Position numbers and translations under genes: made by a program
Notes under the pieces: model-generated
Databases searched by the model: none
Told to the model about the DNA's origin: nothing
What the model saw: only the letters and a program-made list of their open reading frames with translations
Origin: an uncultured Clostridia bacterium
GTDB lineage: Bacteria > Bacillota > Clostridia > TANB77 > CAG-508
Direction of reading: 5' to 3'
Length of the DNA: 64,000 nucleotides
NCBI GenBank assembly: GCA_944391865.1
Contig: CALXVD010000003.1
Location: forward strand, 6,375-70,374
In this document: one piece after another, positions 1 through 64,000 of the stretch
Position numbering within the stretch: the first letter of the stretch is position 1
How the letters are laid out: each line of letters starts with the position of its first letter

Positions 1-1216
1 AACGGACATATCTGACACACAACAGCAAAACGCAGTAGCTCTTATCACAGTATATACCCTTGACAGCCGTAACTCAGAAGACAATCAAGAGCATACACTA
101 TACTATTGCATTGAATGTAATCCATATACAAACTTCTACGGCACTTCTATTTATGATAAGACTACAAATCAAGATGCGACTTCTGAGTATAAGACCAAAA
201 TAACTTTGAAAGAAGAAAAACAAAGCACTCATAACATTCCAACTTTTAGTGTATTTGAACCAGACCCACAAGTAAGTATCATTGACCCAATAATCTCGCT
301 AGTATCAAATTATGAAGAAATAATGAACAACCTAAATAATTTATATCACTATAATGATGCAGATGCGAAGTTAAAGATTTCTGGATACCGACCAGAAAAC
401 CCACTAACAATACCTAATCCAGACTTTGACCCTGAACAACCAATCTCATCTTCCAACCCAGAGAAGATATTAAACCCTGCACGTGAATTAGAGGACCAAT
501 ACCTTATCGACTCAAAAACATTCTACGTGCAAGAAGGAGGAGACGTAGGCTGGCTACTAAAAGAAATACACGCAGAGGATGCGACGAAGTATTTGAAATA
601 TTATGTTGACAGCATCTTCCAGATTTCGGGAATACCAAATACCTCAGACGCAGCGTTCAACTCAGGAGACATGAATGCTAGTGCCATAGACAGAAAATTT
701 TATACAATGGCGCTAATGTTAGACGACGTAAGACAAGGGGTTACAACCCTAATAAAACATAGATGGGCCAACTTCTTCGCAAGAATAAACTTAGTCTCTC
801 CAACTCATTATAATGTAGACGACATAACTATTGAAATAGGTACAAATTTACCATCAATGACAGATGAGACGATAAATCAACAATTAGCACTAAACGGTAT
901 TCTATCACAAAAAACGCTATTATCAAATCTTGGTTATGATTACGCTACAGAGAAGAAGAACAAGGAAGAAGAAACAGAAATACCATACGCCACAGTTACA
1001 CCAGATACGAACTTCGTATCACCAAACGATGTGGATTCTTTATCTTCTGCTGCTACCGACACCACACCTTCACAAAAAACTTCGACTACATCAACCACTT
1101 CTTCACAGACTAATAATCAGATTGAAGCAAGGACACAAAATAGCACACAAACAGTAAAAGATAGAACTAATAATATTAAAAAAACCCAAACAAGAGAGGG
1201 TAGACCTAATAAATGA
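1..1216 (+). CDS. Portal protein (SPP1 gp6-like), 3' partial; the frame is open from the window start, so the ATG at 206 is not the true start
   Basis: The frame is open from nt 2 with no stop codon. The C-terminal region (YTMALMLDDVRQG..KHRWANFFARINL) resembles phage portal proteins. An acidic, S/T-rich tail follows. Confidence 0.7.
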   Translation, partial: TDISDTQQQNAVALITVYTLDSRNSEDNQEHTLYYCIECNPYTNFYGTSIYDKTTNQDATSEYKTKITLKEEKQSTHNIPTFSVFEPDPQVSIIDPIISLVSNYEEIMNNLNNLYHYNDADAKLKISGYRPENPLTIPNPDFDPEQPISSSNPEKILNPARELEDQYLIDSKTFYVQEGGDVGWLLKEIHAEDATKYLKYYVDSIFQISGIPNTSDAAFNSGDMNASAIDRKFYTMALMLDDVRQGVTTLIKHRWANFFARINLVSPTHYNVDDITIEIGTNLPSMTDETINQQLALNGILSQKTLLSNLGYDYATEKKNKEEETEIPYATVTPDTNFVSPNDVDSLSSAATDTTPSQKTSTTSTTSSQTNNQIEARTQNSTQTVKDRTNNIKKTQTREGRPNK

Positions 1217-1310
1217 TAATAAATAATATATCACGTTATTAATTTTGATACCGGCACAAACACCGGTGTCAGATAAATATATAAAAATATTATAATAGGA
1301 GGATTTAAAC

Positions 1311-1985
1311 ATGAATGAAGATGAATTAAACCAAGGGGGAAACCAAAACATGGAGCAAGACCAAAACAATAACAACAATTTACCAAATTCAGTGGAAACA
1401 CCTACACCAAGTGAAACACAAAACTTAGATGTGTTACTTCAAGACCCAAAATTACAAGCTGAGTTTGATAAAAAATTAGAAAAAGCTATGAACAAAGCTA
1501 TAAGAGCGAAAGAGCAAGAGTTTGCTAAAAGAGAATCAGCACTTCAGGCGAGCATTTCTACTGAAAAAGAAAAAATGAGACAAAATATCTTAGAAGAAAT
1601 TGAACAAAAAAAGAAAGAAGCCGAGGAAATGGCCAAAATGTCAGTGGAAGAAAGGTACAAAAAGCAAATAGATAACCAAGAATTGAAGATTGCCGAATAT
1701 GAAAAAGAGTTATCTTTAATCAGAAGAAGGGATAAAATCGCAGAAGTAGTAAAAGAAAAGAATTATGACCCACGCTTATTATCATTACTTAGAGCCGAAG
1801 ACGTTTCAAGTGATGAAGAAATCGAAGATTATGTAGATAAAAGAAATCAAATTTTCTTAGAAGCTACAAATGCTAGAGTACAAACACTTCTAAAAGACCA
1901 CCCAGACGTATTATTAGGCGATTCTAAAAAGAAAAAGGCTGAGCCTGAGTTCAATTTTAACTTTACAAGTAAAAAATCACAATAA
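1311..1985 (+). CDS. Acidic coiled-coil protein, possible scaffolding protein
   Basis: Strong RBS (taggaggatttaaacATG). The protein is K/E-rich with heptad-like periodicity and sits downstream of the portal gene. Confidence 0.35.
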   Translation: MNEDELNQGGNQNMEQDQNNNNNLPNSVETPTPSETQNLDVLLQDPKLQAEFDKKLEKAMNKAIRAKEQEFAKRESALQASISTEKEKMRQNILEEIEQKKKEAEEMAKMSVEERYKKQIDNQELKIAEYEKELSLIRRRDKIAEVVKEKNYDPRLLSLLRAEDVSSDEEIEDYVDKRNQIFLEATNARVQTLLKDHPDVLLGDSKKKKAEPEFNFNFTSKKSQ

Positions 1986-2031
1986 TAAATACGTCAACTA
2001 TAAAAATAAAATTAAAAAGGAGGAGAATTAG

Positions 2032-2472
2032 ATGGCAAGCAGAAAAAAATCAACAAATTCAGAAGAAATCGTTGCTAAAATAGATATACCTGTAGAAGAA
2101 ACAGCTACAGAAATAGCAACAGATGAGTTAGTTTCAGAAGTAAGACCAGAAAAAGAAGAAACTACAGTTGAAATCGAGGAAAAACCTAAAAAAACTACTA
2201 AAAAATCACAAAAAATTCAAAAAACAGAGGAGAAAACACCAAAATATCCAATTGGCAGCATAGTTTTTGTGTCAAAAGATGCAGAAGCCGATTTAAATGG
2301 ATTTAAATTATTTCCACCATATAAAAAATCAACATATACTGTAGAGGCCTACAATCCAATTTCAGGCGTTTATTCTTTGAGGAGATTAAATTTATCATTG
2401 AAGCTAAAAGAAGCCGATATAGTGGCTCCTAATGAGCGTGCGCATGACCCAGTGAATAGAAAACAGTTTTAA
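2032..2472 (+). CDS. Hypothetical K/E-rich protein
   Basis: RBS aaaggaggagaatta before the ATG. No recognisable motifs. Confidence 0.3.
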   Translation: MASRKKSTNSEEIVAKIDIPVEETATEIATDELVSEVRPEKEETTVEIEEKPKKTTKKSQKIQKTEEKTPKYPIGSIVFVSKDAEADLNGFKLFPPYKKSTYTVEAYNPISGVYSLRRLNLSLKLKEADIVAPNERAHDPVNRKQF

Positions 2473-2499
2473 AATAAATTAAAATAGGAGGTAAGTATA

Positions 2500-2802
2500 A
2501 TGAATGAATTTATTAATATTGAAATTTTAGGTACAATCGCAGGATGTAGTGCGATAATCACATTACTTACTCAAGTATTTAAGCAATATTTACCAGAAAA
2601 ATTCGACACAAAGTGGCTTGCGCTAATATTTTCAGTGATAATCGGAGGATTAAGAATTATTTACGTAGGACAGTACGATTTTGCAGGAATTGTGTCTGGT
2701 ATAATTAATATATTTGTACTATTAGGTGTATCTATTGGTATTTATGAGGTAGGTACTTCTGTAGTAAATAAAATAACAGGAGGTTCAAACGATGCTAAAT
2801 AA
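2500..2802 (+). CDS. Holin (phiLC3/phage_holin_1-like)
   Basis: 100 aa with two or three TM segments and a charged C-terminus. It lies immediately upstream of the endolysin. RBS ataggaggtaagtataATG. Confidence 0.6.
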   Translation: MNEFINIEILGTIAGCSAIITLLTQVFKQYLPEKFDTKWLALIFSVIIGGLRIIYVGQYDFAGIVSGIINIFVLLGVSIGIYEVGTSVVNKITGGSNDAK

Positions 2803-2876
2803 TAAGAAAAAAGAAGAAGAAATCAAACAAGGAAATGGAGAACTCCAAAGAAATTTTGAAAAGGAGGAAAAAGAAA

Positions 2877-3959
2877 ATGGCTAAAAGGGGTATAGATATA
2901 AGTGCTCATCAAGGTAATATTGACCTAGAAGCACTAAAAAGTCAAATCGACTTCGTAATAATAAGAGTAGGATATGGTACAAAAGGTACTATAGACGCTA
3001 AATTTACTAGAAATGCTGATTTATGTCGCTCTTTAGGTATTCCAGTAGGATTTTATTGGTATTCATACGCGTTAGACATAGAAGGAGCTAAAAAAGAAGC
3101 TCAAGCTATGATAAATGCTATAGCACCATACAAAGACATAGTAAAATTTGGTGTATGGTTTGATATGGAAGACGCTGATGGATATAAAAAGAAAAATGGT
3201 ATGCCTTCAAATCAAACATTAAGACAAATGTGTGCTGCATTCTGTGAAGCTACAGAAAATGCAGGATATTATTCAGGAATATATGCTTCAGAAAGTTGGT
3301 TTAATAACCAATTAAAAGGAAGTGAAATAACTCCATATGATAAATGGATAGCTCAATGGCCTACAAGTGGAGGAAAACAAACTGGTCTAGATACTAGTGC
3401 TTCTAAAAGAAGCGACGTTCACTTATGGCAATTCACTTCACAAGGTAAATTTTCAGGATATTCAGGAAATCTTGATACAAACTATGCTTATTTAGATAAT
3501 TTCCCAAATCCAGGAAGTTCAACAGAACCTTCTACACCTACTCCTGAACCATCAACACCAGTTTCTACACAAAAATTTAATATTGGAGACAGAGTTGTGA
3601 TAAGTGGAAATCTATATACAAGCTCAAACGCTAAGTCACCAGCAGGTAGTGTATCTAAAACAACTACAAATATTACTAGATATGCGGCAGGAGCAGCTCA
3701 TCCATATAATACAACTGGAGATTTAGGTTGGATGAATGAGAGTGATATACAATTAGCTAGTAATGAAACACCTACTGCAATTGTGAAAGGATGTAAAGTT
3801 AAATTTACAGGTACAAAATCTTATTCTGGTATAAAATTAGCAAGTTGGACCACAAACAGTGTGTTTGACGTAATTGAAGTATCAGGAGATAGAGTAGTAA
3901 TAGGTAAAGGTACAGCAGTTACCGCAGCTGTTAATATGAAAGACTGTGTGAGAGTATAA
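2877..3959 (+). CDS. Endolysin: GH25 muramidase with C-terminal SH3b-like cell-wall-binding domain
   Basis: GIDISAHQG..IDF..FVIIRVGYG..DAKF and the DxE-containing GVWFDMEDADGYKK are GH25 signatures. The start is probably the ATG at 2877, 9 nt after AAGGAGG; the track start at 2835 lacks an RBS. A P/T-rich linker precedes a C-terminal beta domain. Confidence 0.8.
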   Translation: MAKRGIDISAHQGNIDLEALKSQIDFVIIRVGYGTKGTIDAKFTRNADLCRSLGIPVGFYWYSYALDIEGAKKEAQAMINAIAPYKDIVKFGVWFDMEDADGYKKKNGMPSNQTLRQMCAAFCEATENAGYYSGIYASESWFNNQLKGSEITPYDKWIAQWPTSGGKQTGLDTSASKRSDVHLWQFTSQGKFSGYSGNLDTNYAYLDNFPNPGSSTEPSTPTPEPSTPVSTQKFNIGDRVVISGNLYTSSNAKSPAGSVSKTTTNITRYAAGAAHPYNTTGDLGWMNESDIQLASNETPTAIVKGCKVKFTGTKSYSGIKLASWTTNSVFDVIEVSGDRVVIGKGTAVTAAVNMKDCVRV

Positions 3960-6355: not shown

Positions 6356-6775
6356 ATGGACCAAGCATATGAATTAAGTAAAGCACTACCAAATAAATGG
6401 TTAAATCCAGACGGTAGTATAACAGACAGTCAAGGAAATATTATTTCACCAGCTACAACAACTATGGCAGCAGTTTATAAGACTTCAAAATCTATAGTTA
6501 ATAAATTTATAGACGTAGACGGTGAAACAAAAACTTATGAACAAATATCTATGGATATTTTCGTACCAGTAGATAAATTACCTGAAACAGGTGAAAAAAA
6601 TAAAATTTATTTAGTGCCAGCTGAAAATGGTACATTTGATGAATATTATTGGATAAACGATAAATGGGAGCTACTAGGAAATGTATCTTTAGATTTATCT
6701 GATTATCCAACATTTGAGCAAATGAATGCAGCTATAAATGAAGCTATTTATGGAGCATTAGGAGGTGAGTATTAA
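6356..6775 (+). CDS. Hypothetical protein
   Basis: RBS aaggaggtaactATG. Confidence 0.3.
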   Translation: MDQAYELSKALPNKWLNPDGSITDSQGNIISPATTTMAAVYKTSKSIVNKFIDVDGETKTYEQISMDIFVPVDKLPETGEKNKIYLVPAENGTFDEYYWINDKWELLGNVSLDLSDYPTFEQMNAAINEAIYGALGGEY

Positions 6776-12071: not shown

Positions 12072-12791
12072 AAACTGAAAATCTGCCAAGGTTAAATCGA
12101 GGTATTAAGCGGGAAGGCTGAAATGCTAATCCGAACCGAAGGCTATAGATACTATAGTCAGGGGCAACGCATAGGTAGTGAAAAGATATAATCTACCCAC
12201 GAGACCTCGACAATTGTTTTTGAATTTGTTATAATAATGTCGGAGGGGATAATAATGAAAAAAGGAAGTTATTATACTTTAGAAGATTATGTTATAACAA
12301 AAAATGGAGAAGTTATAAATAAACATAACGGTCGTATATTAAAACCACAGTTAAATGGAAAAGGGTATTTAAGAGTTTCTATTGGTAAACAATTGATGTT
12401 TGTTCATAGATTAGTTGCTCAAAAATATGTACCTAATCCAGAAAATAAATTACAAGTCAACCATAAAGATGGAAATAAATTAAATAATTATTATAAAAAT
12501 CTTGAATGGGTAACAAATCAAGAAAATAGAAATCACGCTGTGGAAAATGATTTACATCTATGTGGAGCAAGATGTTCTTGGTCGAAATTAACTTCTTCAC
12601 AAGTTTTAGAAATTTTAAATGATGATGTACATACTTTTACTGAATTAGGTAAAATGTATAATGTGAACCGAAATACAATTAGAGATATTAAAATGGGTAA
12701 AACTTGGAAACAATTGAAAAGATATGCTGACCTATAACGAATAAGTAAGTTATAGAAATAGAGGATAAAAAGCCTTTATGATAACAAAATG
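12072..12791 (+). mobile_element. Group I intron (IA-like) carrying an HNH homing-endonuclease ORF
   Basis: A GC-enriched structured block at 12072..12236 contains P/Q/S-like elements (aagcgggaagg, aatccgaacc, gatactatagtcagg). IGS gccaag at 12085..12090 pairs with the exon-1 end cttggt (P1, U-G at the junction). The adjacent atct pairs with ggat at 12792 (P10). Omega-G at 12791. Confidence 0.55.
12237..12737 (+). CDS. HNH homing endonuclease (HNH_3 type) inside the intron
   Basis: KGYLRVSIGK...VHRLVAQKYVPNPENKLQVNHKDGNKLNNYYKNLEWVTNQENRNHA is a classic phage HNH motif. RBS gtcggaggggataataATG. Confidence 0.8.
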   Translation: MSEGIIMKKGSYYTLEDYVITKNGEVINKHNGRILKPQLNGKGYLRVSIGKQLMFVHRLVAQKYVPNPENKLQVNHKDGNKLNNYYKNLEWVTNQENRNHAVENDLHLCGARCSWSKLTSSQVLEILNDDVHTFTELGKMYNVNRNTIRDIKMGKTWKQLKRYADL

Positions 12792-32482: not shown

Positions 32483-33019
32483 TTAATCACCTCCTAATTT
32501 TAAGTAGGACCATATATAGTTACCTGCTGTTTTACGACGACCTTCACAACAAGAGCATATATTACCGTGATTTATACCTGTGATTAAACTCGCCTGTACT
32601 ACACTAGGATAATTATTTATTAAATGATATTGTCTATCATATTGATATACAGGTTTACTTTGGTCTAAACCTTTTTTCATATTATCAGTAAATTTCCATA
32701 AACCAGTGTCTTTAGCGTGGTTCATATTTTCTTTTCTTGTCATCCATTCAAGTTTATTGATTTTATTATTCATCTTATTTCCGTCAATATGATTAATTTC
32801 TGGCTTATTTTCTGGATTAGGTATAAAAGCAGTAGCGATGAGTCTATGAAGATATAGATGCTTTACTTTATTATTTTTACAAAGTGCTACACGAATATAT
32901 CCTTTTTCGTTGTGAGGTTTTATATATTTATTTGATTGTATTCGTTTAACATTTCCAAAATTACTTATTTGGTACAATCCTTCATATCCTTTTATGTCTT
33001 TCCATATTTCTGCCGGCAC
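32483..33019 (-). CDS. HNH homing endonuclease with NUMOD4-like N-terminus (GTG start)
   Basis: EIWKDIKGYEGLYQISNFGNVK...LHRLIATAFIPNPENKPEINHIDGNKMNNKINKLEWMTRKEN. RBS AAGGAGG 9 nt before the GTG. Confidence 0.8.
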   Translation of the reverse strand: MPAEIWKDIKGYEGLYQISNFGNVKRIQSNKYIKPHNEKGYIRVALCKNNKVKHLYLHRLIATAFIPNPENKPEINHIDGNKMNNKINKLEWMTRKENMNHAKDTGLWKFTDNMKKGLDQSKPVYQYDRQYHLINNYPSVVQASLITGINHGNICSCCEGRRKTAGNYIWSYLKLGGD

Positions 33020-34931: not shown

Positions 34932-35018
34932 TGGTGGGTGAGGATGGATTCGAACCACCGTAGCCACAAGGACGCCTGATTTACAGTCAGGTGCAATTGA
35001 CCACTCTGCCACTCACCC
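34932..35018 (-). tRNA. tRNA-Tyr (anticodon GTA), CCA encoded
   Basis: Acceptor GGGTGAG/CTCACCC, anticodon arm CCTGA-CTGTAAA-TCAGG, long variable arm, T-loop TTCGAAT, 3' ACCA. Confidence 0.75.
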
Positions 35019-35336
35019 ATATTTTTTATGAAGCTGCGCGTGAATACAATTTTCTTGATTTGTCACCCATTCTAAATTATCTGCATTATTATTTGTTTTA
35101 TTAAAATCTTTATGATTAACTTGAGGTTTATTTTCTGGATTAGGTATGAAAGCCTCTGCTACTAATCTATGGACAAAAACTTGTCTAGTATTACTTCTAC
35201 TACCCATTGATAAGTTAACACTCAAATAATTATCTTTATCTAATTTTTGATTTAAAATTTTATCAGTATCTACACGTTTTACTATACCATCAGTTGATAC
35301 CATATATGAATTATTTATTTTGCATTTCTTCCACAT
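35013..35336 (-). CDS. Truncated HNH endonuclease (stop codon overlaps the 5' end of tRNA-Tyr)
   Basis: VHRLVAEAFIPNPENKPQVNHKDFNKTNNNADNLEWVTNQEN. It is only 107 aa compared with 166..178 for its paralogs. Confidence 0.6.
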   Translation of the reverse strand: MWKKCKINNSYMVSTDGIVKRVDTDKILNQKLDKDNYLSVNLSMGSRSNTRQVFVHRLVAEAFIPNPENKPQVNHKDFNKTNNNADNLEWVTNQENCIHAQLHKKYG

Positions 35337-54938: not shown

Positions 54939-55607
54939 ATGAGAAATTATACAGACAGTGAGTTCTTTGGTTCACCATTCCGTGGTGTAACAAGTGTATT
55001 AAATGCAATATTCGGAAATAAATTTGAAAACTCAGGAATACCAGAACACGTTTTGAGAATGGCTGGTGAAAGAGGTACGGCAGTTCATAAATACATTGAA
55101 GACTGGCTTAACTGGTACGATGGAACAACAGGAAACGAACCCCATATAGGATTAGAATATGGAATTTATGAAACTGTTTGGAAGGAATGGTTAGATGAAA
55201 GAATTAATTGGGATATTAAACCATTATACACTGAACAGAAAATTATAAATAAAAAACTTGGAGTAAAAGGTATTATTGACTGTATTGCAGTAGTTAATGA
55301 TAAAATCTGTATGATAGACTGGAAAACAAGCAGTAATTTAGACGAATGGTCTACTAACTGTCAACTTCAATTATATTATATGATGTTACTAAAAGGTAAT
55401 AAAGAAGAAAAAGAAATAGCAAAGAAGATAGACGAATTAAGATGTTTAAGTTTAACAAAAACTGGTTATCGTTGGTTTAAGTTTGATATAGACAAAAAGA
55501 TAGGTAATTCTATATTGGAATTGTGGAATAAACATTTTAGAGAAATAGCAGAAGCGGAAAAAGTAAAAGAGAAAGCAAAAATATCAAGGGGACCAGTAAT
55601 ATTATAA
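54939..55607 (+). CDS. PD-(D/E)xK nuclease (YqaJ/lambda-exonuclease or Cas4-like fold)
   Basis: GTAVHKYIE...GIIDCIAVVNDKICMIDWKTS (D..E/D-x-K). Confidence 0.45.
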   Translation: MRNYTDSEFFGSPFRGVTSVLNAIFGNKFENSGIPEHVLRMAGERGTAVHKYIEDWLNWYDGTTGNEPHIGLEYGIYETVWKEWLDERINWDIKPLYTEQKIINKKLGVKGIIDCIAVVNDKICMIDWKTSSNLDEWSTNCQLQLYYMMLLKGNKEEKEIAKKIDELRCLSLTKTGYRWFKFDIDKKIGNSILELWNKHFREIAEAEKVKEKAKISRGPVIL

Positions 55608-55624: not shown

Positions 55625-57154
55625 ATGAGTAATCGTGTTTATAGTAGTACAAAACGTGACCCAACTGTAAACAAACATAGTAATCGAGAATTTACTAAAA
55701 GTGATTGTATAAAATGGTTAGATACATTAGAAGATGAAAGTGTTAATCTATGGATTTTAGACCCACCATATAATGTTTTAACTGGTAATATGACAAATAA
55801 AAATGGAGCGGCTGTATTTCATTCAAGATATACTGCGAAAGTGTCACCTAGTGAAAGTGATTTAGAAAAAGGAATTGTAACACCGAGATTTGAAGTAGCA
55901 ATTCCATGGGAAGAAAAACAAAAACTAGATGATTATAAGGAAACGTGTTATAAATGGTATTGTAAAGCTCATCAGAAACTATGTGATGATAGTTTTATGT
56001 TCATATTCTGGTCAATGAGATATTTATATTTAGCATATCAAATATTTGACGTAAATAGAGTTATCTTCTGGCAACAACCAAATATGATTAGTAGTATATC
56101 AGGAGATTTTTGTTATGATATAACACCTATTATAGTAATAAGAAAAGGAAATCCAAGACTTACTAAGGAAGCAGGATTATGGGATAAATCAAGTGTTTTA
56201 AATTTTACTAAACCTCAGGGAAACTATAAAAAAGATAAACTGACTCATCCTTGTTTTGTTGCAGGTACAAAAGTTTTCGTAAATAATAAATGGGAAAACA
56301 TTGAACAAGTTAAAGTAGGAGACATAACTCCTTATGGTGAAATTCAAGAACTTATGGTATCAAAAAGTAATAATATTTACGAATTAACTACTGAATTAGG
56401 GGTAACTAAAGTAACAGGTAATCACCCTTTATTAACGGTAGATAAGAAAGGAATAATTCAATGGAAACAAGTACAGAATTTAACGGAATCAGATTTAGTC
56501 TTACAAAGGCAGGATATTACAGAAGTACAACAAAACCAAGAAAGTTTATGCACGTTCTTGTGTGGGAATATTATAACGGACCAAAACCAGAAGGATATGA
56601 TATACACCATATTAACGGAATTAAAACCGATAATAGAATTGAAAACCTTGAACTTGTCGAACACGGACTACACAGCTTACATCACCACAGAACAAAAAAA
56701 GGATGGAAAATATGCAGTAAATGTAAACGAGAGCTTCCAGCAACAAGTGAATATTGGTATAAAGGCAGAGGATACTATCAAGGACCGTGTAGAGAGTGTA
56801 TATTGCAAGCCAGTAAAGATATTGAGTTTAAGAAAAGAAGAAATGCAAGAAGACGAGAACATAGACGTTTACAATCTATCAGTAAAAAACAATAATTTTT
56901 ATGATGTAGAAAATATAGGTATAGTACATAATTGTCAAAAACCTCAGGCACTACTTGAACATTTGGTATGGCTTAGCGACGCTGACCACGAAGGAAATGT
57001 TATTGGAGATTTCTTTGCAGGTTCAGGGTCCCTATTAAGAGCAGTGAACAAGGCGGATGTTATACTTTGTGATAAAAATGACGAATATTACGATAAATTC
57101 TTTGACGTAAACGTTACAGATGAGCGTGTTTATAGATGTAAGAAAATAGATTAA
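55625..57154 (+). CDS. N6A/N4C DNA methyltransferase (beta class) interrupted by an intein
   Basis: Motif IV DPPY at aa 46-49, motif I FAGSGS at aa 464-469. The extein junction THP|C..HN|CQKPQALLEHL reconstitutes an HPTQKP-type motif (HP-CQKP). Confidence 0.75.
   Translation: MSNRVYSSTKRDPTVNKHSNREFTKSDCIKWLDTLEDESVNLWILDPPYNVLTGNMTNKNGAAVFHSRYTAKVSPSESDLEKGIVTPRFEVAIPWEEKQKLDDYKETCYKWYCKAHQKLCDDSFMFIFWSMRYLYLAYQIFDVNRVIFWQQPNMISSISGDFCYDITPIIVIRKGNPRLTKEAGLWDKSSVLNFTKPQGNYKKDKLTHPCFVAGTKVFVNNKWENIEQVKVGDITPYGEIQELMVSKSNNIYELTTELGVTKVTGNHPLLTVDKKGIIQWKQVQNLTESDLVLQRQDITEVQQNQESLCTFLCGNIITDQNQKDMIYTILTELKPIIELKTLNLSNTDYTAYITTEQKKDGKYAVNVNESFQQQVNIGIKAEDTIKDRVESVYCKPVKILSLRKEEMQEDENIDVYNLSVKNNNFYDVENIGIVHNCQKPQALLEHLVWLSDADHEGNVIGDFFAGSGSLLRAVNKADVILCDKNDEYYDKFFDVNVTDERVYRCKKID
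56252..56932 (+). mobile_element. Intein (227 aa) in the methyltransferase
   Basis: Block A CFVAGTKV, block B VTGNHPLL, blocks F/G DVYNLSVKNNNFYDVENIGIVHN, and a +1 Cys. Confidence 0.7.
56461..56895 (+). CDS. HNH endonuclease ORF nested inside the intein in the +2 frame (not fused to the intein)
   Basis: FMHVLVWEYYNGPKPEGYDIHHINGIKTDNRIENLELVEHGLHSLHH plus a CxxC..CxxC zinc ribbon. It has its own ATG and an RBS (aagaaaggaataattca). Confidence 0.6.
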   Translation: METSTEFNGIRFSLTKAGYYRSTTKPRKFMHVLVWEYYNGPKPEGYDIHHINGIKTDNRIENLELVEHGLHSLHHHRTKKGWKICSKCKRELPATSEYWYKGRGYYQGPCRECILQASKDIEFKKRRNARRREHRRLQSISKKQ

Positions 57155-57199: not shown

Positions 57200-57529
57200 A
57201 TGGCATTAAAAATAACTAAATTAGATTTTGAATTAGGCGAAAATGATAAAATTCCAAATGGACTTTGGTTTTATGTAGCAGATTATGTGAAAAAAGGAAA
57301 TGATTCTTATGATAGAGCAAAAAGAAGATTTGCTGTTACAACATTAGTTTCAAGATTAAATGAAATCAGAGCTCGTGAAGATGTAGAGGAATCAGATTTT
57401 CGTCTTATTTTAATGGCTGAAATAAATCAAGTTTATAGCAAACGAAAAGAATTAACCCAATTTGAACAAGATATAATAAAATATATAGTCGAAATATTCA
57501 AAATATTAGTAAATGGGGGTGTGTTATAG
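57200..57529 (+). CDS. Hypothetical protein
   Basis: 109 aa. Confidence 0.3.
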   Translation: MALKITKLDFELGENDKIPNGLWFYVADYVKKGNDSYDRAKRRFAVTTLVSRLNEIRAREDVEESDFRLILMAEINQVYSKRKELTQFEQDIIKYIVEIFKILVNGGVL

Positions 57530-60158: not shown

Positions 60159-60700
60159 GGCATATGGCTAAAAAGAAAAAAGAAGAACCTATTGACGCAG
60201 AAGATATTATAGGTACTTTCTTAAAAGGGGATAGATACGATGACGATGAAAGATACAGACAAAGTGTTGACGCCATTTATAGAAAATTAAAACCTATATG
60301 GCTTAACGAGTGTAAAGACGCAGTATGGTTATTAAAAGACGAATACGTAAGAGACGTTGCTTCAATATTATACTTAGACGACCAAATGGGTGGCAATTTA
60401 GACCCTACAAGTCTTAGTGAAGAAAGACAGAATTTATTAGGCTGGAAGCAAGTGCAAAGTTCAATTGAGAGGTATAGGGCACTTGATTATTCTTTAGTTG
60501 ATGACGAGAGTATCAAAGCCATATTATCCAGTATTATTAAGAACAAGCAAGCAAGGGACGCTGACAGGCTTAAAGCGATTGAAATGTATACTGGTATGTT
60601 TAGCACTGATAATATTGAAGGTATTACGTTTATTAATGATATAAGTAAACCAAAAGAATTTAAAAAAGAAGAAGATGAGGAGGATGAAGATGACGACTGA
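60155..60700 (+). CDS. Hypothetical protein with an acidic tail
   Basis: 181 aa. Confidence 0.3.
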   Translation: MRHMAKKKKEEPIDAEDIIGTFLKGDRYDDDERYRQSVDAIYRKLKPIWLNECKDAVWLLKDEYVRDVASILYLDDQMGGNLDPTSLSEERQNLLGWKQVQSSIERYRALDYSLVDDESIKAILSSIIKNKQARDADRLKAIEMYTGMFSTDNIEGITFINDISKPKEFKKEEDEEDEDDD

Positions 60701-61211
60701 GATTTGGAAAGATATTAAAGGATATGAAGGACTTTATCAAATTAGTAACTTAGGTAGAGTGAAATCAGCAATCAATAGAAGTAATCATAAACACGAGTTA
60801 ATTTTAAAACCAATAAAAGACCGCGACGGATACTATCGTGTTCATTTATATAAAAAATCAAAGTTAACTACATATTTTATACATAAATTGGTTGCCGAAA
60901 CATTTATACCTAATCCTGATGATTTGCCAATAGTAAACCATAAAGATGAAGATAAAACTAATAATTGCATGAATAATTTAGAATGGTGTACCGTTAGATA
61001 TAATAATAGTTATGGTAATCGACTAATAAATATATCAAAAACTTCTGGAAAACCCGTTCAATGTGTAGAAACTGGTTTAATTTATCATTCTATAAAAGAA
61101 GCTAGTAGGCAAACAGGAATTGATTATAGTTCTATTGCAAAAAATTGTAGAGGTAAAAGGAGTGTAGCAGGTAGCTATCATTGGAAATATGCAAAAAAGG
61201 AGGTGATGTAA
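60675..61211 (+). CDS. HNH homing endonuclease (NUMOD4-like N-terminus)
   Basis: EIWKDIKGYEGLYQISNLGRVKS..IHKLVAETFIPNPDDLPIVNHKDEDKTNNCMNNLEW. It is a paralog of the gene at 32483. Confidence 0.8.
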   Translation: MRRMKMTTEIWKDIKGYEGLYQISNLGRVKSAINRSNHKHELILKPIKDRDGYYRVHLYKKSKLTTYFIHKLVAETFIPNPDDLPIVNHKDEDKTNNCMNNLEWCTVRYNNSYGNRLINISKTSGKPVQCVETGLIYHSIKEASRQTGIDYSSIAKNCRGKRSVAGSYHWKYAKKEVM

Positions 61212-61212
61212 C

Positions 61213-62661
61213 ATGAAACGAGCTTTAAGTGAAATAATTCTTCCTAACTATTGGGACTTACTTGAAGATGGTATAGGTGAACAGTTAGAACAGAGTAGGA
61301 AGATGTTTTTAAGAGGAGGTCGTTTCTCTTGAATTAGGAAAAAGTTATTGGGCTGCGCATCACATTATTATTTCATTACTCTCATTAGCTTGCACTCATG
61401 TTGAACGGTGAACCTTGGGCTTGCTGTCTGGCACTAAGAAAATATAGTAACACACTTAAAACATCTGTATACGCAGAGATTGCTAATGCTATAATTAATT
61501 TAGGCGTAGAAAATAAATTTCAAATGCTTACGAACCCAATGGAAATAAGACTAAAAGGCACTAAGTCTGTAATTAAATTCGCTAACTTGAACACGGCTGA
61601 GGATTACGGAAAAGTTAAGAGTATTAAATGGCCTGGTGGCTACTGTAGATTAATATGGTTTGAAGAAGCGGACCAATTTCAATCTAAGCACGACGTTGAC
61701 CAAGTGTTATTAAGTTTGTATAGAGGTGGAGACATATTTGAAACTATATTCACGTATAATACGCCGTTTAGTCCATCACACTGGTTAAACGTAGGCTGGA
61801 ATAATGAACGAGAAATGCTTACGGATGCTGATAGTGGTGAAGTCAGAAAGAAAAGAGAAAAAGTATATTTCAAACACGTTAATTTATATGATATACCAAG
61901 AGGTATCGTCCCTGAACAGGTTTATGATATGGCTGAAGCAATGCGTGAAGAAAACTTGCAAGAGTGGAAACACGTGATTATGCGGAGAAGTGGGTGACCC
62001 TGCTACTATGGTGTTCCCAAATATTAAAGCTGTACGACCTAAGGACGTAGATTTAGAACACGACTGGTTATTAGGTTCACCAAGTAACTGGCGCTGGCTT
62101 GTTGGTATGGACTATGGTTATCGTCCTGACCCAACTGTATGTGTAGTATGTGGCTATAATAAAATCAGAAAAATCTTATGGATAGTAGATGAAACAAGAG
62201 GTATCGGCTGGAGTGAAGAAGGTATCTATATGAACGTAATGGAAATGCTTAAACGTGGTGGCGCTAGTGCTAAAGCACTATCTGGTGGAGGCGGCGGTGT
62301 TGTGAACGCAAGTAGTTTAATTAATTCCGAAATTGATAACAGAATTATAGACGGCTTACGAAGTAAGGGTTTGAACATATACCCAGTTAAAAAAGTTTCT
62401 GGTTCAAGAGATATTTCATATCAGTTTTTGACTGGAGGTTATGGTGATTTACGTGAAATCTGGATTGATAGTGAACAGTGTCCTGGAGTCTGGGCAGAAT
62501 TTATCGGAGCTGAATTCTTAAGACGTGACATTGGAGGCAAAGAAATCATTGTTCAAGAGTGGCCTACTGTTAATGACCACGGAATAGACGCTACAAGATA
62601 CGCAACACTTGACTTATGGCTAGGCAGAGCTATTACTGGGAGCAAAAGAACATTATTGTAA
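61213..62661 (+). CDS. Terminase large subunit, encoded in four consecutive +1-shifted frame segments
   Basis: The segments are 61213..61332, 61313..61411, 61389..61997 and 61978..62661. Strong RBS aaggaggtga at 61213. Walker-A-like ..LRGGR/SLELGKS, Walker B RLIWFEEADQF, nuclease domain VGMDYGY..DHGIDATRYA. Confidence 0.6.
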
Positions 62662-62938: not shown

Positions 62939-63259
62939 ATGATAGGTATAGGCGACTTTGACGCTAAGGCGCGTAACACAAGAAAAGTAGTAACACGCGA
63001 AGGACAAAAATTATATATGGGAAAAAAGTACGCAGTTGAACAGAAGACTGGTTATTATGTATGTACGAGCGGTTCTAGGCGTCGTTTACATGATATTATG
63101 TGGGAACATGAAAATATTGCAGGTATAAAAAACATACCAGAAGGTTATGTGATTCATCATATAGACTGGAACAAAACACACAACGAAATAAATAATTTAA
63201 CTTGTATTTCTGTATTTGGGCATAATTTAATACATAACCCACCAAAAGGACGGAAGTGA
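62939..63259 (+). CDS. HNH endonuclease (short form)
   Basis: HHIDWNKTHNEINNLTCISVFGHNLIH. Confidence 0.6.
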   Translation: MIGIGDFDAKARNTRKVVTREGQKLYMGKKYAVEQKTGYYVCTSGSRRRLHDIMWEHENIAGIKNIPEGYVIHHIDWNKTHNEINNLTCISVFGHNLIHNPPKGRK

Positions 63260-63366: not shown

Positions 63367-64000
63367 ATGAGTAGATTTGATTATGAAACAGATGAAGAAT
63401 ATCGTAGCAGACGCCGTAGAGAGTATGAAAATTGGAGAGCAAGAAAACATGAACATGAATATCAAAATGGTTTAGAATTGTTAGGTAAAAGAATACGAAT
63501 AAGTGATTTTGTAAAAGAAAAAATATTAACCGGCAGAACAAAAGTATTAATGATAGATGATAAATTAGTTTTATTTCATAAAGGGAGTACTGGGCATTGG
63601 TGCAATAGTTCTACATTTGAACACGAAATATTCTTACATAGAGAAATATTTAAGCAAAAAACAGGGCTAACCGAAGACGACTTAAAAGGTATGGAAGTTC
63701 ATCACGTAGATGGTAATAAAGATAATAATGACATAACTAATTTGAAATTATTAAGTAAAAGTGAACATGCTCGACATCATTTAATAACAACACGAATTAA
63801 AACAAAAAAGATATGTGAATGGTGTGGAGAAGAATATGAAACATATATAAGTAAAAGTCGTTTTTGTAGTAGTAAATGTGACCACAAATGGAGGTATCAT
63901 AATGAACGTAAATTACAATTGGATACTCGTATATGCAAAAATTGTGGGAAAGAATTTACCTGTAATAAATATAAACCTACTAAGTTTTGTAGTTTATCTT
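63367..64000 (+). CDS. HNH endonuclease with a C-terminal zinc ribbon, 3' partial (runs off the window)
   Basis: EVHHVDGNKDNNDITNLKLLSKSEHARHH and CEWCGEE..CSSKCDHKW..CKNCGKEF. No stop codon before nt 64000. Confidence 0.65.
   Translation, partial: MSRFDYETDEEYRSRRRREYENWRARKHEHEYQNGLELLGKRIRISDFVKEKILTGRTKVLMIDDKLVLFHKGSTGHWCNSSTFEHEIFLHREIFKQKTGLTEDDLKGMEVHHVDGNKDNNDITNLKLLSKSEHARHHLITTRIKTKKICEWCGEEYETYISKSRFCSSKCDHKWRYHNERKLQLDTRICKNCGKEFTCNKYKPTKFCSLS

Follow-up and report, generated by a model that had tools for sequence, protein, structure and literature searches.

The locus described here is a phage DNA methyltransferase (methylase) gene from an uncultured Clostridia bacterium (assembly GCA_944391865.1, contig CALXVD010000003.1) that carries an intein, within which an HNH nuclease is encoded in another reading frame of the same strand. 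Unless another contig is named, coordinates refer to the window, that is, the whole 64,000-nucleotide stretch that was analyzed (positions 6,375 to 70,374 of the contig). The features of the locus, with open reading frame abbreviated as ORF, amino acids as aa and nucleotides as nt, are:

55625..57154 (+), methylase-intein precursor ORF, 509 aa (ORF list; Pfam; Foldseek)
55625..56251 (+), N-extein, aa 1-209, ending ...KDKLTHP (alignment with intein-less alleles)
56252..56932 (+), class-1 intein, aa 210-436, 227 aa (Pfam Intein_splicing; block residues; AlphaFold2 [AF2] and Foldseek)
56447..56452 (+), Shine-Dalgarno-like AAAGGA, 8 nt upstream of the HNH ATG
56461..56895 (+), nested HNH homing-endonuclease gene, 144 aa (ORF list; Pfam HNH_3)
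56492..56791 (+), overlap center, HNH frame under purifying selection and intein frame a stop-free linker, aa ~290-389 (diversity; identity; no Pfam family; low AF2 confidence)
56599-56688 (+), HNH core, aa 47-76, behind an I-HmuI-like N-terminal sheet
56713-56799 (+), CxxC...CxxC zinc ribbon, C85/C88/C110/C113, followed by a basic C-terminal helix
56792..56895 (+), 3' end of the overlap, intein frame dominant (Hint C-terminal strands and block F) and HNH frame a dispensable basic tail (diversity)
56933..57154 (+), C-extein, Cys+1 (TGT) then QKPQALLEHLV..., including the stop codon

The 509-aa ORF is a β-class N6/N4 DNA methyltransferase. Pfam N6_N4_Mtase matches it at 6e-21, the match being split over aa 40-491, and the motifs DPPY and FAGSGS lie at aa 46-49 and aa 464-469, respectively. 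A Foldseek search with the AF2 model of the precursor retrieved the β-class methylases CcrM, M.MboIIA and M.RsrI; the exteins were modeled poorly in the whole precursor because the alignment was shallow (28 homologs).

Relatives were sought in several collections. A megablast search of the region against 50,697 phage genomes gave no match, tblastn against phage genomes gave only Campylobacter phage methylases of about 35% identity that matched the N-extein alone, and tblastn with the primase-like neighbor gave no useful phage relatives; with no close match among phage genomes, no cultured relative is available. A deep protein database yielded 88 methylase homologs. About 30 clusters (493-519 aa, 73-97% identity) have the same intein, with the intein frame open in about 28, and about 55 clusters of about 282 aa are uninterrupted; there are also 19 intein-less viral loci. 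Four clusters of about 625 aa (P0048, P0049, P0076 and P0082) carry another intein, about 340 aa long, which includes a LAGLIDADG_3 domain. The only one of the four that was aligned, P0048, has it just before DPPY (LWI/CYDE...NGN/CDPPY, slashes marking splice junctions or insertion points here and below), so the methylase family appears to have two intein insertion sites. IMG/VR contained no intein-bearing allele of the methylase. For analysis at the DNA level we used ten occupied alleles from separate ENA/Logan assemblies (L020-L029) and an eleventh, L030 (P0089), that came from a search with the HNH protein. L030 was considered as a free-standing HNH gene and rejected; it is a nested copy in which a 100-N scaffold gap interrupts the outer ORF.

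The intein-less alleles read HP/TQKP, HP/SQKP or HP/CQKP, and for this reason the insertion point is exact. The initial annotation had placed the intein exactly at a catalytic HP(T)QKP motif. The site stands but the adjective does not: HPTQKP is a conserved motif directly upstream of the S-adenosylmethionine-binding FAGSGS, and the catalytic motif of N6/N4 methylases is DPPY. Occupied alleles read HP/C...VHN/CQKP, and their junction after splicing would match natural empty alleles, many of which already have the TGT codon that gives HP/CQKP. Splicing would thus give HP-CQKP, a sequence that uninterrupted alleles have naturally.

Block A of the intein is CFVAGTKV (Cys1 being C210), block B is VTGNHPLL (TGNH at 56414-56425), and blocks F and G read DVYNLSVKNNNFYDVENIGIVHN, block G ending IGIVHN/C with N436 followed by Cys437. 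The splicing residues C210, T264/H267, H435-N436 and C437 are all invariant in 28 alleles. The Pfam family Intein_splicing (PF14890) matches aa 210-436 at E 1.3e-8, with a score just short of the gathering threshold, and a precomputed match to it is recorded for most relatives. In the AF2 model the Hint core (residues 210-300 and 390-430) is confident, with a predicted local distance difference test score (pLDDT) of about 70-89; read-through residues 300-320 and 370-390 have pLDDT 28-45. Foldseek matched the model to the Ssp and Npu DnaB mini-inteins, BIL domains, TvoVMA and gp41-1 (E 2e-5 to 5e-4, target template-modeling scores 0.63-0.78), and phmmer against PDB sequences gave nothing meaningful for the intein or for the HNH protein. 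The stretch of the outer frame that overlaps the HNH gene matches no Pfam family and has no similarity to endonucleases.

Two other kinds of interrupted gene were considered for this locus. A group I or group II intron with an endonuclease ORF is ruled out by an Rfam scan of the whole window at gathering thresholds, which gave a single tRNA and no intron-like RNA, by the continuous host frame, and by the encoded Hint blocks. A fractured gene with a split intein is ruled out by the single continuous ORF of 509 codons.

The ATG of the nested gene lies 836 nt after that of the methylase, which puts it in frame 3, equivalent to -1 (offset 2). Its ORF starts 13 codons past block B and ends within block F. 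The product matches Pfam HNH_3 (PF13392) at 3e-18 and has fold similarity to a characterized HNH homing endonuclease (I-HmuI-like); it is not endonuclease VII-like (IPR004211). Among 25 homologs H31, H50 and N62 are invariant and H49, N58 and H71 nearly so. The catalytic H/N/H and all four cysteines of the zinc ribbon are kept across alleles with one exception, the third cysteine in L022. A purine-rich, AAGGAG-like block lies 7-8 nt upstream of the HNH ATG in all alleles, and reads AAAGGAG in most relatives. This Shine-Dalgarno-like block probably serves translation of the HNH gene, and separate internal initiation would be the simplest reading of how the gene is expressed. Gene calls do not include the HNH gene in any intein-bearing contig unless the outer ORF is broken.

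These results agree with much of the initial annotation. It had proposed an intein at aa 210..436 with the A, B and C-terminal blocks given above (supported by the ORF, Pfam and the alignment with empty alleles), no in-frame endonuclease fold in the center of the intein (no Pfam family is found there in that frame), and a complete 144-aa HNH protein with a zinc ribbon, encoded at 56461..56895 in another frame with an ATG of its own (supported by the ORF list and the HNH_3 match). The profile searches of both frames that it had suggested gave N6_N4_Mtase and Intein_splicing for the outer frame and HNH_3 for the nested one.

Could a double open frame of this length have arisen by chance? All 11 separately assembled alleles, whose protein identity ranges down to about 73%, have both frames open; their HNH ORF encodes 119-148 aa in the same relative frame, begins in the same context and ends with TAA. 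Over the 435 nt of the overlap, 20 stops fall in the third frame of the window, and 16-25 across alleles for the same span. We resampled synonymous codons for each HNH protein according to the codon usage of this genome, with 4000 trials per allele. With the window HNH protein, the intein frame acquired 6.4 stops on average and stayed open in 0/4000 trials; across all alleles 5.3-7.7 stops were expected and the frame was open in 0-2 of 4000 trials each. In the converse procedure codons were resampled for the intein-frame peptide; the HNH frame was then expected to have 13.8 stops and was open in 0/4000 trials. Resampling in both directions and the stops in the third frame therefore confirm the early judgment that the double open frame is beyond chance and represents real dual coding.

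Mean pairwise diversity was calculated by codon position along the gene. The exteins and the non-overlapped ends of the intein have the usual pattern, with position 3 far above position 1 and position 1 above position 2; position 3 is at 0.39-0.43, and values for the N-extein are 0.157/0.075/0.394. In the overlap center (gene nt 867-1167) the peak is at position 2 of the intein frame, which is the wobble position of the HNH frame, at 0.26-0.39. The intein-frame pattern is back from about gene nt 1170, with position 2 at 0.048 in nt 1227-1287, and the C-terminal segment of the intein is under the strongest purifying selection in the gene (0.043/0.017 at positions 1/2). The HNH protein (144 aa) is 67-92% identical to the window copy, versus 52-82% for the read-through peptide of the overlap center. 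Indels between alleles are multiples of 3.

The overlap can be read in three parts. The first 10-15 or so HNH codons overlap a Hint strand (IQWKQVQNLTESDLVL), and there the codon-position signal is mixed. Where the HNH core and zinc ribbon are encoded, the intein frame is a linker that apparently needs only to be stop-free. The last 30 or so HNH codons, which encode the basic helix, overlap the strongly constrained C-terminal strands of the Hint domain and block F; we call this tail dispensable because it is absent in L023 and shortened in L026.

How, then, is the intein frame kept open? For a stop to arise in it, an HNH codon ending in TA or TG must be followed by one that starts with a purine. 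In the 11 alleles, all 107 of the HNH Leu, Ile and Val codons that precede a purine-initial codon are NTY (A- or G-ending, 0/107). NTA use is 64% in safe contexts of the same HNH genes and 62% genome-wide. In the window HNH gene alone, none of 11 at-risk Leu, Ile and Val codons ends in A or G (Fisher p = 2e-5). Codon choice thus keeps stops out of the intein frame, the bias being a signature of long standing, and both frames are demonstrated to be coding sequence under selection.

The occupied alleles are scattered among empty ones in a neighbor-joining tree of the exteins and are often their nearest neighbors. Intein and extein histories also disagree: P0010 and P0012 have inteins that are 100% identical within exteins that are 86% identical, and P0015 and P0027 have exteins 93% identical and inteins 69% identical. 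This interspersion and disagreement indicate ongoing lateral transfer. The pattern of occurrence and identity points to an element that is still moving between alleles, though it does not thereby prove the HNH nuclease to be the agent. The anatomy, the selection on both frames, the codon-choice mechanism and this distribution are what the analysis shows.

We consider it very likely that the locus consists of a class-1 mini-intein at HP/TQKP and a separate I-HmuI-like HNH_3 homing gene in the -1 frame, and that splicing and homing both take place. For splicing, internal initiation, the cleavage target and homing we infer the following course, which is well supported by the anatomy and the population pattern. 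The gene for the HNH_3 domain and zinc ribbon would occupy the loop where canonical inteins carry an in-frame endonuclease domain. The 509-codon frame would be translated straight through, the HNH DNA being read as a linker that lacks stops and whose amino acids are under hardly any constraint or none, and the Hint domain would then excise itself to give a 282-aa methylase with HP-CQKP. Translation of the HNH protein would start internally, at a Shine-Dalgarno sequence and ATG of its own, and give a separate product. In mixed infections this protein would nick or cut intein-less methylase alleles at or near the site encoding HPTQKP, and repair would copy the intein and the HNH gene into the cut allele.

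Several points weigh against this interpretation. The Pfam intein score is slightly under the gathering threshold (35.3 vs 35.8 bits). The Shine-Dalgarno-like block lies within coding sequence (for K-K-G), so its conservation is no independent proof. A scan for promoters and terminators, compared with shuffled sequences, found no promoter signal inside the gene above chance and no excess of either signal, and so does not point to a separate HNH transcript. Because the alleles share ancestry, codon counts summed over them are not independent events; the single-genome test and conservation over about 27% protein divergence agree with the pooled counts. Finally, some alleles are broken. In L029 (P0030) a 2-nt deletion at about gene nt 943 joins the N-extein and the N-terminal part of the intein to the HNH frame and breaks the methylase, P0092 has a frame switch from the HNH frame into the C-terminal part of the intein, and the HNH gene of L023 is truncated after the zinc ribbon. 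These variants may be decaying copies or assembly errors.

Is the HNH protein necessarily a separate homing enzyme? It might instead be expressed as a fusion, through a -1 frameshift, or it might be a domesticated phage nuclease with a role in packaging or against the host. Its frame is indeed -1 relative to the intein, the deletion in L029 makes exactly such a fusion, and terminases are assisted by HNH proteins in some phages (PMC11855218). Programmed -1 frameshifting is nonetheless unlikely: in most alleles the HNH frame has a TAA 5 codons before its ATG, a shift would have to take place within the 15 nt between them, and inspection by eye revealed no conserved slippery heptamer in that stretch. 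As to domestication, the HNH gene occurs strictly with the intein and is missing from the numerous empty alleles, which is not how a fixed phage function would be distributed. The six other HNH_3 genes in the window also count against this reading. We regard fusion or domestication as improbable.

The HNH ORF might also be an unexpressed, decaying relic, with the methylase-intein frame alone functional and kept open because the methylase is needed. The truncation in L023 and the frame-breaking indels of L029 and P0092 would suit a relic. Against it, substitutions in the overlap center concentrate at the HNH wobble position, the HNH protein is better conserved than the read-through peptide, its catalytic residues and zinc-ribbon cysteines are kept (L022 apart), and some 14 stops would be expected in the HNH frame given the intein-frame peptide. 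The patchy distribution and tree incongruence, moreover, imply recent mobility. A relic is therefore very improbable.

It is likewise most unlikely that the Hint domain no longer splices, with the 227-aa insertion retained as a tolerated loop (as proposed for the ShiLan domain discussed below) or with the methylase dead. Related HNH insertions without a Hint domain occur by the same motif in L031 and L090, so read-through insertions near this position may be tolerated, and the methylase is dispensable in some relatives (PMC11855218). What speaks against a loss of splicing is that C1, T-x-x-H, the terminal HN and Cys+1 are invariant in all 28 alleles, that the C-terminal segment of the intein is the most strongly constrained part of the gene, and that the exteins retain a normal pattern of purifying selection.

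The alternative offered in the initial annotation, taken as an artefact or recent accident in this genome that altered an ordinary in-frame HNH intein by two sequencing or assembly indels or by compensating frameshifts, deserves almost no credence: isolated contigs do have indels here (L029, P0092), but an artefact is excluded because 11 separately assembled alleles, from different studies and assemblers, have the same frame structure, HNH start context and TAA stop, about 28 protein clusters have the intein frame open, indels between alleles come in multiples of 3, the stop-avoiding codon bias is long-term, and the HNH region has no endonuclease similarity in the intein frame.

A splicing mini-intein with a separate homing gene in its -1 frame has precedents, and the supposition that a nested, out-of-frame endonuclease gene in an intein was undescribed was not borne out (bioRxiv 10.1101/2025.01.02.630785; PMC11855218). 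Gosselin, Arsenault and Gogarten surveyed about 800 actinophage inteins and reported non-canonical ones with an endonuclease VII-like nuclease (IPR004211) in reading frame 3, the host genes being those for terminase, DNA polymerase, minor capsid protein and thymidylate synthase; they proposed that free-standing endonuclease genes invade inteins and that later fusion is possible via 1-2 bp indels (bioRxiv 10.1101/2025.01.02.630785). Like the window intein, theirs are contiguous, enclose between their splicing blocks an endonuclease ORF that is read from the same strand in frame 3 without breaking the intein frame, and have a distribution suggesting continuing transfer. They differ in that the nuclease is endonuclease VII-like there and HNH_3 here, and in host gene, phage group and GC content (31% here). 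The same preprint cites antisense LAGLIDADG genes in inteins as known since 1998, and the title of a 2026 preprint refers to an out-of-frame endonuclease in a cyanobacterial dnaX intein (bioRxiv 10.64898/2026.09.14.751524).

The ShiLan domain is an out-of-frame HNH in an actinophage methylase that has no splicing domain (Arsenault et al., Genes 2025, PMC11855218). Like the window gene, this 'hidden HNH' of ShiLan and Pacc40 lies in a phage methylase ORF whose host frame stays open; the HNH frame gives a confident fold and the read-through peptide a poor one, and the distribution is patchy and homing-like. Unlike the window gene, which sits within a complete Hint domain with all splicing residues, the ShiLan insertion is thought to be retained, and it has a GTG start, no detectable ribosome-binding site, and Mycobacterium phages as its setting. 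In fractured genes, a free-standing homing endonuclease gene parts split inteins (Dassa et al., NAR 2009, PMC2677866). These share with the window a separately translated endonuclease gene in place of the endonuclease domain of the intein, but there the intein and host gene are split into two ORFs and splicing is in trans, whereas the window intein frame is continuous and overlaps the nuclease gene. I-HmuI itself, the intron-encoded HNH nicking endonuclease of Bacillus phage SPO1 (PDB 1u3e), belongs to a group I intron and has C-terminal DNA-binding modules of the NUMOD type; the window HNH is nested in an intein and has the CxxC...CxxC zinc ribbon and basic helix instead.

The layout is thus rare and was first described in other phages in 2025, and this locus is a well-documented further example. 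New here are the nuclease family (I-HmuI-like HNH_3), the host gene, the low-GC phage group (31%) and the strength of the evidence.

When viral contigs were searched with the HNH protein, its closest relatives proved likewise to be nested out of frame in longer ORFs. In L031 and L032 the HNH protein is 41% identical to it over 119 aa and has a matching zinc ribbon. Its gene is in the same relative frame, within an N6/N4 methylase that has no intein match (in L031, methylase ORF 1128-3059 and nested HNH 2474-2863), and its TAA stop precedes the His codon of HSTVKP by 5 nt. L090 (P0107; 667-1107) is arranged alike, with HCTVKP as the motif. In all three the HNH gene ends within about 10 nt of the position equivalent to the window intein site, and the host methylases are unrelated. 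Out-of-frame HNH_3 genes also occur elsewhere in the methylase ORFs of L039 (1917-4187, HNH 2492-3112) and L085 (61-3633, HNH 1955-2698), and the L039 HNH gene avoids NTA and NTG at risk positions (0/25). L031, L039, L085 and L090 look like ShiLan-type cases outside actinophages (GC 0.41 for the L031/L032/L090 group). The L085 methylase seems by eye to have a separate intein (G/CLSEDTEILT...FITGN/SGFP), with no Pfam intein match at E <= 0.001.

That nested HNH homologs lie directly upstream of H-x-T-x-K-P in unrelated methylases fits an HNH lineage targeting that site. Judged from these few loci, the pattern suggests that the DNA for the HPTxKP motif is the target of a zinc-ribbon HNH lineage, which is found there both inside a Hint domain and without one, an appealing series for the origin of bifunctional inteins.

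The wider HNH_3 family is also found free-standing, as in six further copies in the window, and in frame within inteins. An example of the latter is the SNF2-family helicase of L060/L063 (1508-4138), in which an in-frame HNH_3 intein at GxGKT (G/CISGNC...HHINGIKTDNRFENLELL...VVVHN/CGKT) matches Pfam Intein_splicing and HNH_3 in a single frame. Such canonical inteins share with the window a Hint domain, an HNH_3 domain with a HHINGIKTDNRxENLEL core, and insertion at a conserved host motif. In L060, however, the nuclease is a domain of the intein polypeptide in one frame, and in the window it is a separate gene in another frame.

The six further HNH_3 genes, all within 64 kb, are:

12237-12737 (+)
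32483-33019 (-)
35013-35336 (-)
60675-61211 (+)
62939-63259 (+)
about 63400-63999 (+)

Four of them have NUMOD4, two of those four also having NUMOD1, and the closest paralog of the nested HNH is 62939-63259 (44% identity over 68 aa). The genome is unusually rich in homing-endonuclease-like genes. Two HNH_3 genes flank the large terminase subunit, 60675-61211 upstream and 62939-63259 downstream, and the upstream one is an insertion between genes relative to L001. The terminase itself is found as two overlapping ORFs in different frames, 61398-61997 and 61990-62661 (+), both with PHROG terminase matches; the frame change may be a frameshift, an error or another interruption. The tRNA, at 34935-35018 (-) and 61 bits, is the sole Rfam match in the window, and its coordinates overlap the 3' end of the NUMOD4-HNH_3 ORF at 35013-35336 (-) by 6 nt.

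Gene order next to the methylase also varies. Most relatives have a 109-aa gene between a PD-(D/E)XK nuclease gene and the methylase (2156-2485 in L020). This gene is not there in the window, where the PD-(D/E)XK gene ends at 55607 and the methylase starts at 55625; a 109-aa gene follows the methylase (57200-57529). This PD-(D/E)XK gene, upstream of the methylase, has NUMOD4/HNH_3 modules fused to it or in front of it in relatives (L022 1269-2147; L023 1313-2281; L026 1327-1809), and in L022 and L023 the PD-(D/E)XK part and the NUMOD4-HNH part are within one ORF. The region upstream of the methylase in relatives is another hotspot for endonuclease genes.

What might the locus say about the origin of bifunctional inteins? 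Tentatively, and with rather less than even confidence, we propose that there is an HNH lineage specialized for HPTxKP, which occurs 'naked' (L031/L032, L090) or sheltered by a Hint domain (the window), and that the locus is a living intermediate on the way to bifunctional inteins. If so, a homing endonuclease gene and a mini-intein with a common target site would have merged while still remaining unfused, and indels of one or two bases, enough to fuse them, do occur in the population (L029, P0092). The 'protein splicing first' view holds that inteins gained mobility when a free-standing homing-endonuclease gene invaded a splicing-only mini-intein. Unfused intermediates have been reported only recently. 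Those reported to date come from GC-rich actinophages, in which a long second open frame arises easily; the present locus is a low-GC case in which dual coding is statistically demonstrable. Its alleles form a natural population, some occupied, some empty and some occupied differently, the way in which the two overlapping genes share the sequence can be read from it, and the nuclease has intein-less relatives by the same motif; these together make the order of events testable. It also carries a practical warning, namely that gene callers and intein surveys miss nested nucleases of this kind.

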